Origin: Escherichia coli
GTDB lineage: Bacteria; Pseudomonadota; Gammaproteobacteria; Enterobacterales; Enterobacteriaceae
Reading direction: 5' to 3' (one strand)
NCBI RefSeq assembly: GCF_016903815.1
Contig: NZ_CP069973.1
DNA length: 64,000 bases
The translations under genes and the position numbers were made by a program. Each line of letters opens with the position of its first letter. Within the stretch, counting starts at the first letter, position 1. Under the pieces are notes generated by a model that saw only the letters and a list, made by a program, of their open reading frames with translations, was not told the DNA's origin and made no database searches. Positions 41,762 through 60,692 of the stretch are shown piece after piece.

Positions 41762-43033
<1,272 letters not shown>

Positions 43034-43057
43034 GTTGTCATTTCCCACCCTTATAAA

Positions 43058-43080
43058 AGGTCCGCTTGCGGGCCTTTTTT
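43058..43080 (+). terminator. Rho-independent terminator of the acpP-fabF transcript
   Basis: aggtccgc-ttg-cgggcct hairpin followed by TTTTTT, 25 bp after the fabF stop. Confidence 0.7.
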
Positions 43081-43081
43081 C

Positions 43082-43794
43082 TTGTGCACAGAAAACCCCC
43101 AGCTAGGCTGGGGGTTCCGGAAAGCTTTCAGCTTTAAGCCAGTTATTAAAACCCCTTTTGATTTGTTAAAACACCTTGCGGTCTGGCAACTGCAAGTGTC
43201 AAACAAGAAATCAAAAGGGGGTCCCAATGGGGAACGAAAAGAGCTTAGCGCACACCCGATGGAACTGTAAATATCACATAGTTTTTGCGCCAAAATACCG
43301 AAGACAGGTGTTCTACAGAGAGAAGCGTAGAGCAATAGGCAGTATTTTGAGAAAGCTGTGTGAGTGGAAAAGTGTACGGATTCTGGAAGCTGAATGCTGT
43401 GCAGATCATATCCATATGCTTGTGGAGATCCCGCCCAAAATGAGCGTATCCGGCTTTATGGGATATCTGAAAGGGAAAAGCAGTCTGATGCTTTACGAGC
43501 AGTTTGGTGATTTGAAATTCAAATACAGGAACAGGGAGTTCTGGTGCAGAGGGTACTACGTCGATACGGTGGGTAAGAACACGGCGAAGATACAGGATTA
43601 CATAAAGCACCAGCTTGAAGAGGATAAAATGGGAGAGCAGTTATCGATTCCCTATCCGGGCAGCCCGTTTACGGGCCGTAAGTAACGAAGTTGGATGCAA
43701 ATGTCAGATCGTGTGCGCCTGTTAGGGCGCGGCTGGTAAGAGAGCCTTATAGGCGCATTTGAAAAACCTCCGGCTATGCCGGAGGATATTTATT
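43082..43794 (+). mobile_element. IS200 (IS200/IS605 family) insertion sequence, copy 1
   Basis: About 713 bp that is apparently identical to 59980..60692 (ORF-track translations identical on both strands); encodes an HuH Y1 transposase; left-end hairpin cccccag-ctagg-ctggggg (43096..43114) and right-end hairpin cctccggc-tat-gccggagg; boundaries set by where the two copies diverge, plus or minus a few bp. Confidence 0.9.
43227..43685 (+). CDS. tnpA: IS200 transposase TnpA (HuH Y1 family)
   Basis: 152-aa protein MGNEKSLAHTRWNCKYHIVFAPKYRR...ADHIHMLVEIP...; HxH motif and Tyr-containing C-terminal region; closely matches Salmonella IS200 TnpA from memory. Confidence 0.9.
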   Translation: MGNEKSLAHTRWNCKYHIVFAPKYRRQVFYREKRRAIGSILRKLCEWKSVRILEAECCADHIHMLVEIPPKMSVSGFMGYLKGKSSLMLYEQFGDLKFKYRNREFWCRGYYVDTVGKNTAKIQDYIKHQLEEDKMGEQLSIPYPGSPFTGRK

Positions 43795-43863
43795 AGCTTT
43801 TATTCTGACTTGTTCCGTAGTGAACATGCTGCCACACTAACAATTCTCTGATAAGGAGCCGGT

Positions 43864-44673
43864 ATGTTCTTAATTAACGGTCATAAGCAGGAATCGCTGG
43901 CAGTAAGCGATCGGGCAACGCAGTTTGGTGATGGTTGTTTTACCACCGCCAGAGTTATCGACGGTAAAGTCAGTTTGTTATCGGCGCATATCCAGCGACT
44001 ACAGGATGCTTGTCAGCGGTTGATGATTTCCTGTGACTTCTGGCCTCAGCTTGAACTAGAGATGAAAACGCTGGCAGCAGAACAGCAAAATGGTGTGCTG
44101 AAAGTGGTGATCAGTCGCGGTAGTGGCGGGCGAGGATACAGCACATTGAACAGCGGACCGGCAACGCGGATTCTCTCCGTTACGGTTTATCCCGCACATT
44201 ACGACCGTTTGCGTAACGAGGGGATGACGTTGGCGCTAAGCCCGGTGCGGCTGGGGCGCAATCCTCATCTTGCAGGTATTAAACATCTTAATCGGCTTGA
44301 GCAAGTATTGATCCGCTCTCATCTTGAGCAGACAAACGCTGATGAGGCGCTGGTCCTTGACAGCGAAGGGTGGGTTACGGAATGCTGTGCGGCTAATTTG
44401 TTCTGGCGGAAGGGCAACGTAGTTTATACGCCGCGACTGGATCAGGCAGGTGTTAACGGCATTATGCGACAATTCTGTATCCGTTTACTGGCACAATCCT
44501 CTTATCAGCTTGTCGAAGTGCAAGCCTCGCTGGAGGAGGCGTTGCAGGCAGATGAGATGGTTATTTGTAATGCGTTAATGCCAGTGATACCCGTACGTGC
44601 CTGTGGCGATGTCTCCTTTTCGTCAGCAACGTTATATGAATATTTAGCCCCACTTTGTGAGCGCCCGAATTAG
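43864..44673 (+). CDS. pabC: Aminodeoxychorismate lyase PabC
   Basis: 269-aa protein matching PabC. Confidence 0.93.
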
Positions 44674-44675
44674 TC

Positions 44676-45698
44676 ATGAAAAAAGTGTTATTGATTATCT
44701 TGTTATTGCTGGTGGTACTGGGTATCGCCGCTGGTGTGGGCGTCTGGAAGGTTCGCCATCTTGCCGACAGCAAATTGCTTATCAAAGAAGAGACGATATT
44801 TACCCTGAAGCCAGGGACCGGACGTCTGGCGCTCGGTGAACAGCTTTATGCCGATAAGATCATCAATCGCCCACGGGTTTTCCAATGGCTGCTGCGTATC
44901 GAACCGGATCTTTCTCACTTTAAAGCCGGGACTTACCGCTTTACACCGCAGATGACCGTGCGCGAGATGCTGAAATTGCTGGAAAGCGGTAAAGAAGCAC
45001 AGTTCCCTCTGCGACTGGTAGAAGGGATGCGTCTGAGCGATTACCTCAAGCAATTGCGTGAGGCCCCGTATATCAAGCACACGCTGAGCGACGATAAGTA
45101 CGCCACCGTAGCGCAGGCACTTGAACTGGAAAACCCGGAGTGGATTGAAGGTTGGTTCTGGCCAGACACCTGGATGTATACCGCCAATACCACCGATGTC
45201 GCGTTACTCAAGCGAGCGCACAAGAAAATGGTGAAAGCGGTCGATAGCGCCTGGGAAGGGCGTGCGGACGGTCTGCCCTATAAAGATAAAAACCAGCTGG
45301 TGACGATGGCATCAATTATCGAAAAAGAAACCGCCGTTGCCAGTGAACGCGATCAGGTTGCCTCGGTATTTATCAACCGGTTACGCATTGGTATGCGCCT
45401 GCAGACCGACCCGACCGTGATTTACGGGATGGGAGAGCGTTATAATGGCAAACTTTCTCGTGCAGACCTGGAAACGCCGACAGCGTATAACACCTATACC
45501 ATTACCGGTTTGCCGCCAGGTGCAATAGCTACGCCGGGGGCGGATTCGCTGAAGGCTGCTGCGCATCCGGCAAAAACGCCGTATCTCTATTTTGTGGCCG
45601 ATGGTAAAGGTGGTCACACGTTTAATACCAATCTTGCCAGTCATAACAAGTCTGTGCAGGATTATCTGAAAGTGCTTAAGGAAAAAAATGCGCAGTAA
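44676..45698 (+). CDS. mltG: Endolytic murein transglycosylase MltG (YceG)
   Basis: 340-aa protein with N-terminal membrane anchor, matching YceG/MltG. Confidence 0.93.
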
Positions 45699-46329
45699 GT
45701 ATATCGTCATTGAGGGGCTGGAAGGCGCAGGCAAAACTACCGCGCGTAACGTGGTGGTTGAGACGCTCGAGCAACTGGGTATCCGCGACATGGTTTTCAC
45801 TCGGGAACCTGGCGGTACGCAACTTGCCGAAAAGTTAAGAAGCCTGGTACTGGATATCAAATCGGTAGGCGATGAAGTCATTACCGATAAAGCCGAAGTT
45901 CTGATGTTTTATGCCGCGCGCGTTCAACTGGTAGAAACGGTCATCAAACCTGCGCTGGCTAACGGCACCTGGGTGATTGGCGATCGCCACGATCTCTCCA
46001 CTCAGGCGTATCAGGGCGGCGGACGTGGTATTGACCAACATATGCTGGCAACACTGCGTGATGCTGTTCTCGGGGATTTTCGCCCCGACTTAACGCTCTA
46101 TCTCGATGTTACCCCGGAAGTTGGCTTAAAACGCGCGCGTGCGCGCGGCGAGCTGGATCGTATTGAGCAAGAGTCTTTCGATTTCTTTAATCGCACCCGC
46201 GCCCGCTATCTGGAACTGGCAGCACAAGATAAAAGCATTCATACCATTGATGCCACCCAGCCGCTGGAGTCCGTGATGGATGCAATCCGCACTACCGTGA
46301 CCAATTGGGTGAAGGAGTTGGACGCATGA
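45688..46329 (+). CDS. tmk: Thymidylate kinase
   Basis: 213-aa protein with P-loop GLEGAGKTT. Confidence 0.95.
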
Positions 46330-47330
46330 GATGGTATCCATGGTTACGACCTGATTTCGAAAAACTGGTAGCCAGCTATCAGGCCGGAAGAGGTCACCAT
46401 GCGCTGCTCATTCAGGCGTTACCGGGCATGGGCGATGATGCTTTAATCTACGCCCTGAGCCGTTATTTACTCTGCCAACAACCGCAGGGCCACAAAAGTT
46501 GCGGTCACTGTCGTGGATGTCAGTTGATGCAGGCTGGCACGCATCCCGATTATTACACCCTGGCTCCCGAAAAAGGGAAAAATACGCTGGGCATTGATGC
46601 GGTACGTGAGGTCACTGAAAAACTGAATGAGCACGCCCGCTTAGGTGGTGCGAAAGTTGTCTGGGTAACCGATGCTGCCTTACTGACCGACGCCGCGGCT
46701 AACGCATTGCTGAAAACGCTTGAAGAGCCACCAGCAGAAACCTGGTTTTTCCTGGCTACCCGCGAGCCTGAACGTTTACTGGCAACATTACGTAGTCGTT
46801 GTCGGTTACATTACCTTGCGCCGCCGCCGGAACAGTACGCCGTGACCTGGCTTTCACGCGAAGTGACAATGTCACAGGATGCATTACTTGCCGCATTGCG
46901 CTTAAGCGCCGGTTCGCCTGGCGCGGCACTGGCGTTGTTTCAGGGAGATAACTGGCAGGCTCGTGAAACATTGTGTCAGGCGTTGGCATATAGCGTGCCA
47001 TCGGGCGACTGGTATTCGCTGCTAGCGGCCCTTAATCATGAACAAGCTCCGGCGCGTTTACACTGGCTGGCAACGTTGCTGATGGATGCGCTAAAACGCC
47101 ATCATGGCGCTGCGCAGGTGACCAATGTTGATGTGCCGGGACTGGTCGTCGAACTGGCAAACCATCTTTCTCCCTCGCGCCTGCAGGCTATACTGGGGGA
47201 TGTTTGCCACATTCGTGAACAGTTAATGTCTGTCACAGGCATCAACCGCGAGCTTCTCATCACCGATCTTTTACTGCGTATTGAGCATTACCTGCAACCG
47301 GGCGTTGTGCTACCGGTTCCTCATCTTTAA
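46326..47330 (+). CDS. holB: DNA polymerase III delta' subunit HolB
   Basis: 334-aa protein from [14 protein letters not shown]...; ATGA overlap with the tmk stop. Confidence 0.93.
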
Positions 47331-47340
47331 GAGAGACATC

Positions 47341-48138
47341 ATGTTTTTAGTCGACTCACACTGCCATCTCGATGGTCTGGATTATGAATCTTTGCATAAG
47401 GACGTGGATGACGTTCTGGCGAAAGCCGCCGCACGCGATGTGAAATTTTGTCTGGCAGTCGCCACAACATTACCAGGTTATTTACATATGCGGGATCTGG
47501 TAGGCGAACGTGACAACGTCGTATTTTCTTGTGGCGTGCATCCACTCAACCAGAATGATCCCTACGATGTAGAAGATTTACGCCGTCTGGCGGCAGAAGA
47601 GGGTGTTGTAGCGCTGGGTGAAACCGGTCTGGATTATTATTACACACCGGAAACTAAAGTACGTCAGCAAGAGTCCTTCATTCATCATATCCAGATTGGT
47701 CGTGAACTGAACAAGCCGGTTATCGTCCATACCCGTGACGCCCGCGCCGATACGCTGGCAATTCTGCGCGAAGAAAAAGTGACGGATTGCGGTGGCGTAC
47801 TACACTGTTTTACAGAGGACAGAGAAACGGCGGGTAAATTACTGGATCTCGGATTTTACATCTCCTTTTCCGGCATTGTGACCTTCCGTAATGCGGAGCA
47901 ACTGCGCGATGCTGCGCGTTATGTCCCCCTGGATCGGTTACTGGTAGAAACTGACTCACCTTACCTTGCACCGGTTCCGCATCGAGGAAAAGAGAATCAA
48001 CCTGCGATGGTTCGTGACGTTGCAGAATACATGGCTGTGTTGAAAGGTGTTGCCGTTGAAGAACTGGCGCAGGTAACCACCGATAACTTCGCCCGTCTGT
48101 TTCACATCGACGCTTCCCGCCTTCAATCCATCCGTTGA
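47341..48138 (+). CDS. ycfH: TatD-family metal-dependent nuclease YcfH
   Basis: 265-aa protein from [16 protein letters not shown]... Confidence 0.92.
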
Positions 48139-59979: not shown

Positions 59980-60692
59980 TTGTGCACAGAAAACCCCCAG
60001 CTAGGCTGGGGGTTCCGGAAAGCTTTCAGCTTTAAGCCAGTTATTAAAACCCCTTTTGATTTGTTAAAACACCTTGCGGTCTGGCAACTGCAAGTGTCAA
60101 ACAAGAAATCAAAAGGGGGTCCCAATGGGGAACGAAAAGAGCTTAGCGCACACCCGATGGAACTGTAAATATCACATAGTTTTTGCGCCAAAATACCGAA
60201 GACAGGTGTTCTACAGAGAGAAGCGTAGAGCAATAGGCAGTATTTTGAGAAAGCTGTGTGAGTGGAAAAGTGTACGGATTCTGGAAGCTGAATGCTGTGC
60301 AGATCATATCCATATGCTTGTGGAGATCCCGCCCAAAATGAGCGTATCCGGCTTTATGGGATATCTGAAAGGGAAAAGCAGTCTGATGCTTTACGAGCAG
60401 TTTGGTGATTTGAAATTCAAATACAGGAACAGGGAGTTCTGGTGCAGAGGGTACTACGTCGATACGGTGGGTAAGAACACGGCGAAGATACAGGATTACA
60501 TAAAGCACCAGCTTGAAGAGGATAAAATGGGAGAGCAGTTATCGATTCCCTATCCGGGCAGCCCGTTTACGGGCCGTAAGTAACGAAGTTGGATGCAAAT
60601 GTCAGATCGTGTGCGCCTGTTAGGGCGCGGCTGGTAAGAGAGCCTTATAGGCGCATTTGAAAAACCTCCGGCTATGCCGGAGGATATTTATT
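59980..60692 (+). mobile_element. IS200 (IS200/IS605 family) insertion sequence, copy 2
   Basis: Apparently identical to copy 1, offset 16,898 bp, same orientation; left end abuts the bhsA terminator T-tract and right end lies 12 bp from the ldtC stop. Confidence 0.9.
60125..60583 (+). CDS. tnpA: IS200 transposase TnpA (HuH Y1 family), copy 2
   Basis: Protein identical to the copy 1 TnpA. Confidence 0.9.
   Translation: MGNEKSLAHTRWNCKYHIVFAPKYRRQVFYREKRRAIGSILRKLCEWKSVRILEAECCADHIHMLVEIPPKMSVSGFMGYLKGKSSLMLYEQFGDLKFKYRNREFWCRGYYVDTVGKNTAKIQDYIKHQLEEDKMGEQLSIPYPGSPFTGRK

Follow-up and report, generated by a model that had tools for sequence, protein, structure and literature searches.

Between fabF and pabC, this Escherichia coli strain carries a complete copy of the insertion sequence IS200C. 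Most probably it is an ordinary, intact element at a preferred target, which has left the host signals intact and has limited consequences. Its effect on expression is expected to be near-neutral and is probably harmless. The initial annotation of the window (the whole stretch of 64,000 nucleotides that was analysed) had proposed that hairpins at both ends of the element reduce the acpP-fabF read-through that normally reaches pabC, tmk and holB. The logic of that proposal is sound in direction, and the effect to be expected is small. In what follows, the anatomy of the element, its insertion point, the conservation of its surroundings, its frequency and the target pattern come from our own analysis, and the activity of terminators and promoters is taken from the literature on K-12 and Salmonella.

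The fabF-pabC locus and the insertion point

The features of the locus as far as the start of pabC, with strand and basis, are as follows.

41792..43033, + strand: fabF, beta-ketoacyl-ACP synthase II, last gene of the fab cluster (ORF list; RefSeq annotation, strain 7/2)
43055..43083, + strand: native fabF intrinsic terminator, complete, upstream of the IS (terminator scan; fold; same in K-12)
43084..43794, + strand: IS200C, complete, 711 bp, left end facing fabF (alignment of the occupied with the empty K-12 site; RefSeq name IS200C)
43094..43117, both strands: perfect hairpin of the left end, IS nt 11-34 (folds at -18.7 kcal/mol on the + strand and -20.7 kcal/mol on the - strand)
43094..43217, + strand: structured tnpA 5' leader, including a stem-loop hiding the Shine-Dalgarno sequence (Rfam STnc490, cmscan; PMC4513863)
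43227..43685, + strand: tnpA, intact, 152-aa Y1 (HUH) transposase (Pfam PF01797; WP_000526135.1)
43767..43794, both strands: right-end hairpin (43767-43785) and 9-nt T-rich tail ATATTTATT closing the element (terminator scan, fold)

By the ORF list and the sequence, the gap between the two genes measures 830 bp (43034-43863), and the initial annotation had the same figures, with fabF ending at 43033 and pabC starting at 43864. It had also placed an IS200 in this gap, and both the empty-site alignment and the RefSeq annotation confirm that a complete IS200C is present; in strain 7/2, where the region is identical, RefSeq gives the gene order fabF, tnpA (IS200C), pabC. The empty K-12 site reads ...AAAAGGTCCGCTTGCGGGCCTTTTTTCTT|AGCTTTTATTCC..., where the bar marks the position of IS200C in the window, and alignment of the occupied with the empty site puts the insertion point directly after ...GGGCCTTTTTTCTT. 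The boundaries carry a 2-bp TT ambiguity, so that 43082..43792 is equally possible. There is no clear target duplication in this alignment, and the 2-bp TT at the junction is either a possible duplication or the end of the IS.

Some of the lengths first given for the element and its surroundings need correction. The empty-site alignment gives 711 bp for the IS; the earlier value of 713 bp corresponds to the stretch common to both copies in the window, with two host T's included. The host spacer amounts to 119 bp rather than about 117 bp, the same as in K-12, of which 50 bp lie to the left of the IS (43034-43083) and 69 bp to its right (43795-43863). A spacer does therefore remain between the right end of the IS and pabC, as had been stated, but it is 69 bp long and not 70 bp. 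Compared with K-12, the retained spacer differs at two bases, 43806 (T for C) and 43044.

The native fabF terminator and read-through

The native terminator of fabF is missing from the account given in the initial annotation. It is an intrinsic terminator, with a GC-rich hairpin, a U-tract and 3' ends that have been measured within the tract in K-12. The hairpin (43055-43078) folds at -13.3 kcal/mol and is followed by the T-tract TTTTTTCTT, which runs to 43083. Both are identical in sequence in the window and in K-12, and IS200C starts right after the last T of the tract. Transcript ends and starts of K-12 were taken from the SMRT-Cappable-seq supplementary tables (Yan et al. 2018, PMC6131387) and mapped onto the window. 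The termination sites of acpP-fabF in K-12, 1153228/1153229 (PMC6131387), correspond to 43081/43082, positions that fall 2-3 nt short of the insertion point.

Transcripts of acpP-fabF that extend into pabC and mltG occur in K-12 (PMC6131387). For three start sites, the numbers of reads ending at the site, passing it, or ending at most 50 bp downstream are 117/11/18, 98/2/16 and 10/1/1 (PMC6131387). From these counts we computed read-through fractions of 11/146, 2/116 and 1/12 reads, or about 5%, possibly an underestimate as SMRT-Cappable-seq under-samples long reads. Since the native terminator already stops about 95% of transcription in K-12, only a small residual flow can be removed by the IS. 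Of the proposed reduction in read-through, the premises hold, as read-through exists in K-12 (PMC6131387) and the hairpins of the IS are real, but most of the flow would end before the element is reached.

Anatomy of the element

The copy is a member of the IS200 group of the IS200/IS605 family. A chance match is out of the question because the transposase, the leader and a second, 100% identical copy all agree: TnpA matches Pfam PF01797 (Y1_Tnp) with E=3.8e-38 over profile positions 2-121 of 121, and the tnpA leader matches the full model of Rfam STnc490 (RF01405) with 146.1 bits and E=5.9e-31, against a gathering score of 56 (cmscan). The translation of TnpA shows the HIH motif and YY. By the ORF list, the Y1 transposase is the only ORF of the 711 bp and a tnpB ORF is absent. 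The start of tnpA has been placed near nt 40 of the element, and the tnpA promoter has been described as intrinsically weak (Ellis et al. 2015, PMC4513863). The Rfam STnc490 model matches the tnpA-sense strand of the window (43094-43217, +), and the sRNA formerly called STnc490 (art200) is antisense to the tnpA leader (Ellis et al. 2015, PMC4513863); the sense strand may therefore be what the Rfam family models.

The terminator-like hairpins that had been noticed at both ends of the IS are borne out, on the left by the fold and the literature (PMC4513863) and on the right by the terminator scan and the fold. In IS200, the left hairpin (IS nt 12-34) has been described as a bidirectional rho-independent terminator, which guards against impinging transcription (Ellis et al. 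2015, PMC4513863). In the window, the left-end hairpin at 43094-43117 was not called by a simple terminator scan. It is followed by TTTTCTGT on the minus strand and has no T-run on the plus strand, so its efficiency against read-through from fabF rests on the Salmonella literature. The right-end hairpin (-17.8 kcal/mol, z=-4.4) is terminator-like on both strands in the terminator scan. Terminal inverted repeats are absent: GTGCAC... at one end and ...TTTATT at the other do not form such a pair.

The window holds a second copy, located as follows.

59982..60692, + strand: second IS200C copy, in the same orientation, between bhsA (+) and ldtC (-), 100% identical over 711 bp

It lies downstream of bhsA, directly after a hairpin and T-run (CCCCGCGACATGCCGTGTCGCGGGGATTTTT) that form the bhsA terminator.

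Promoters and genes downstream

The features on the far side of the element are a promoter assigned from the K-12 data and the genes of the pabC operon.

43810..43844, + strand: putative pabC promoter, -35 TTGTTC at 43810-43815, N17, TG at 43830-43831, -10 CACACT at 43833-43838, transcription start site (TSS) 43844 (K-12 TSS 1153280)
43864..44673, + strand: pabC (ORF list)
44676-45698, + strand: mltG, collinear with K-12
45688-46329, + strand: tmk, collinear with K-12
46326-47330, + strand: holB, collinear with K-12
47341-48138, + strand: ycfH, collinear with K-12

All five genes (43864..48138) are intact, with no indels compared with K-12, 0-6 amino-acid differences per protein and no internal stops. 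In K-12, start sites are recorded at 1153280 (pabC-mltG-tmk), 1153829 (mltG-tmk) and 1154889 (tmk-holB-ycfH) (PMC6131387). These map to 43844, to 44393 within pabC and to 45453 within mltG. The first of these equivalents precedes pabC by 20 nt and falls within the 69 bp of spacer that are retained. The hexamers of the putative promoter were assigned by eye from the published K-12 TSS, and by consensus the promoter is weak, with about 6/12 hexamer positions matching in addition to the extended TG; a consensus scan did not call it. The one difference from K-12 in the 69-bp spacer, at 43806, falls at -38 of this promoter. The right end of the IS is at -50, so that only the DNA upstream of -50 has been replaced, by another A/T-rich stretch. 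For both internal start sites (44393 and 45453), the 60 nt upstream are 100% conserved compared with K-12. A perfect TATAAT is found inside mltG in the stretch 45441-45453, just upstream of the equivalent of the tmk-holB-ycfH start.

The initial annotation had held that tmk and holB must rely on promoters in the spacer between the IS and pabC, on internal promoters, or on outward transcription from the IS. Promoters of the first two kinds exist in K-12, and the corresponding regions are conserved here. Outward transcription found no support, as a consensus promoter scan of both strands over 42900-44000 returned no promoter-like site. A candidate outward or hybrid promoter at the right end of the IS (TTGAAA-N17-GAGGAT) was rejected, as it has only 8/12 matches and was not called by the scan. 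Going by the mapped K-12 start, the TSS inside mltG would give tmk and holB a start of their own, and because this internal start would serve them, the initial annotation had overstated how far the essential genes depend on transcription from upstream. The whole pabC-mltG-tmk-holB-ycfH block had also been called essential; of its five genes, reportedly only tmk and holB are essential in the Keio collection. A search of the literature on the pabC promoter and on read-through from fabF into pabC yielded only a P. putida paper and no dedicated study of either.

Distribution among E. coli genomes

A 1.5-kb query across the region found the occupied fabF-pabC site in 219 of 5,426 complete E. coli genomes, in all of which the region is 100% identical and whose RefSeq annotation has the same order of fabF, an IS200C family transposase and pabC. 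The empty site is present in 5,200 genomes. A Salmonella origin of the window, which the name IS200 might suggest, was rejected because of this identity with E. coli genomes. The carriers show about 18-27 places that match the query, mostly other copies of IS200C. Among the carriers, WCHEC4533 has been analysed among ST405 genomes (PMC9037040), and YDC107 is of ST964, O102:H6 and phylogroup D (PMC6035167). With the sequence type placed through these papers for two of the 219 strains, the insertion marks the lineage of the ST405 complex, in which it is fixed and tolerated.

In the strain CFSAN018748, which is free of the IS, the flanks are 100% identical to the window over 300 bp, including the T at 43806. 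A compensatory mutation at this position (T, compared with C in K-12) was considered and rejected, since the same T in an IS-free strain means that the change predates the IS or is independent of it.

Expected effect on the host and alternative explanations

The events at this locus can be pictured as follows. IS200C would move as single-stranded DNA by means of its Y1 HUH transposase. It has integrated just past the fabF terminator, on the 3' side of the T-tract (TTCTT), with its left end next to that terminator; the active strand of the element is on the G-rich strand, which is the template of the lagging strand. Neither the fabF terminator, nor the putative core promoter of pabC (TSS about 43844), nor the internal mltG-tmk and tmk-holB-ycfH promoters have been touched, and the consequences are therefore expected to be limited. 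The acpP-fabF read-through into pabC-mltG (about 5% in K-12) would now have to cross about 0.7 kb of added sequence together with two further hairpins, and another A/T-rich sequence stands in place of the DNA beyond -50 of the pabC promoter. Expression of tmk and holB would be essentially unaffected.

The insertion might instead be polar, as a stronger reading of the initial annotation would have it, with a physiological cost or benefit, if the hairpins of the IS cut a substantial read-through and clearly lower pabC-mltG(-tmk-holB). We consider this unlikely, although several observations point towards it. Read-through transcripts of acpP-fabF-pabC(-mltG) exist in K-12 (PMC6131387), published work describes the left end of IS200 as terminating transcription that impinges on the element and the first hisD984::IS200 allele as polar (PMC4513863), the right end is terminator-like, and the pabC promoter is weak by consensus. 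If that promoter is indeed weak, a read-through of 5% could be a sizeable share of pabC-mltG mRNA, because acpP is very highly expressed, and the sequence replaced upstream of -50 could change an UP-element-like contribution. However, about 95% of transcripts in K-12 already end at the native terminator, which here lies ahead of the IS, and the start sites for pabC and for tmk-holB-ycfH are retained and conserved. The retained spacer shows no compensatory change, the flanks of the IS-free CFSAN018748 being identical over 300 bp. The insertion is also fixed in a globally successful clone (219 genomes), which fits a near-neutral effect.

Promoter creation is known for other IS families, and the element could in principle drive the downstream operon, either by read-out from tnpA into pabC or from a promoter, outward-facing or hybrid, at the right end. 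This is highly improbable here: tnpA is co-oriented with pabC and there is a TTGAAA hexamer shortly before the right-end hairpin, but the scan of both strands over 42900-44000 returned no promoter-like site, the right-end hairpin with its T-rich tail stands between tnpA and pabC, and the tnpA promoter is described as intrinsically weak (PMC4513863). That the IS is an assembly or annotation artefact, or a decayed remnant, can be dismissed for practical purposes. Repeats are generally prone to misassembly, which is all that speaks for an artefact; the same junctions recur in 219 independently completed genomes, TnpA and both ends are intact, and the second copy is identical. An ordinary IS200C at a preferred target is thus the reading that we retain.

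Target choice of IS200-type elements

Structurally, the copy does not differ from the known IS200 (Salmonella enterica), IS200C (E. coli) and IS1541 (Yersinia), and only its location between fabF and pabC is specific to this E. coli lineage. These elements are alike in size (about 707-711 bp), in their single 152-aa Y1 transposase, in a left-end hairpin described as a terminator, in the tnpA leader (the STnc490/art200 region), in the right-end hairpin, and in having a T-rich insertion site and no inverted repeats. IS200C has been found in T-rich sites before (PMC6963479), and terminator-like sequences have been reported to be over-represented upstream of IS200/IS605 elements (bioRxiv 10.1101/2025.07.22.666184). 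A large IS survey (PMC9208149) holds nothing specific on IS200 targets.

To look at insertion sites more widely, species-representative genomes were scanned with the 24-nt left-end hairpin AACCCCCAGCTAGGCTGGGGGTTC, which gave at least 120 loci in Yersinia, Vibrio, Brenneria, Pluralibacter, Edwardsiella, Mailhella/Desulfovibrio, Oxalobacter and several MAGs. Under a strict rule (hairpin of at least 6 perfect pairs, at least 3 of them GC, a loop of 3-8, and a T-rich tail ending at the IS boundary), a hairpin with T-tail precedes the element in 89 of the 118 distinct left flanks among the matches listed (about 75%). The same rule is satisfied at 174 of 20,000 random positions (0.9%) and at 276 of 5,000 random T-rich positions (5.5%). 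With one mismatch allowed, a hairpin is present in 109/116 flanks among the matches listed (about 94%), and the T-tail measures 6-9 nt in 91 of these 109 listed flanks. The last five host bases have the consensus TTNTT over the 116 flanks listed, the same as the IS's own terminal TTATT; the left end of the copy at the fabF site abuts TTCTT.

The exact 24-nt hairpin also occurs in very distant taxa, namely MAGs of Bacillota, Peptococcaceae, Saccharibacteria, Elusimicrobiaceae, Oxalobacter and Mailhella/Desulfovibrio (loci L003-L065), and the 10 nt on its 5' side differ between groups (GTGCACAGAA, GTATAGAGAA, GGTTAAAAGAA, GTGAAACGAA...). This suggests a wide horizontal spread of one IS200 lineage, with contamination of the MAGs as another possible source. 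In Yersinia pestis (including NCTC5923, L084), IS1541/IS200-type copies are found in head-to-tail tandem, with the right end of one joined to the left end of the next (L067, about 280-370; L068, 2660-3393; L070, 12604-13337; L114; L084). In these tandems, one copy has its left end directly against the right-end hairpin and TATTTATT of another, and the element's own right end therefore serves as a target.

GC skew is positive across the whole window, and the left-to-right strand of both IS200C copies lies on the G-rich strand, the template for lagging-strand synthesis, which lends indirect support to transposition by way of single-stranded intermediates. This is reportedly the orientation to be expected for the IS200/IS605 family, as Ton-Hoang and co-workers are said to have described in Cell in 2010.

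The peel-and-paste elements IS608 and ISDra2 transpose as single strands and insert 3' of a short target that their left end recognises, with a bias to the lagging-strand template. The target here resembles theirs in that the left end abuts a conserved pentanucleotide (here TTNTT), there is no clear target duplication given the 2-bp ambiguity, and the active strand is here on the G-rich strand. It differs in that the targets of the IS200-type copies listed almost always follow a GC-rich hairpin at a distance of 6-9 nt, which makes up a complete intrinsic terminator. To our knowledge, an upstream hairpin is not part of the target definition of IS608. A setting similar to ours is seen in Yersinia, where IS1541 sits between pheL and pheA (PMC3082878), again an IS200-type element in a regulatory spacer directly after a terminator structure. 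However, IS1541 splits an attenuator from the gene that it controls, whereas at the fabF site the terminator ends an operon and the downstream operon keeps its own promoter.

Terminators and the right end of IS200 are alike in combining an A-run and a short-looped GC hairpin with a T-rich tail of 6-9 nt that closes with TTNTT. It is conceivable, at somewhat less than even chances on these sequence likenesses, that what IS200-group transposases recognise is not just a T-rich pentanucleotide but the entire intrinsic terminator, which would fold in the single-stranded template of the lagging strand and imitate the element's right end. Selection against other insertion sites could yield the same terminator pattern.

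Implications

The element, its hairpins and its leader are already known, and the fabF-pabC copy is annotated in public genomes. The locus provides a handy lineage marker of the ST405 complex and an example of an IS that adjoins essential genes without touching their signals; it brings no new mechanism. The wider pattern among the copies listed, with docking almost invariably at terminator ends, bears on both target choice and harmlessness and is of moderate interest. An excess of terminators upstream of IS200/IS605 elements is already on record (bioRxiv 10.1101/2025.07.22.666184). The idea that terminators may be chosen as mimics of the element's right end is the only moderately new one. If true, it would explain why about 94% of the listed copies, from several phyla, sit at the end of a terminator T-tract and are co-oriented with the upstream gene. 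It would also explain the head-to-tail tandems of Y. pestis, and how such elements persist with little harm, for example between fabF and an operon with essential genes.
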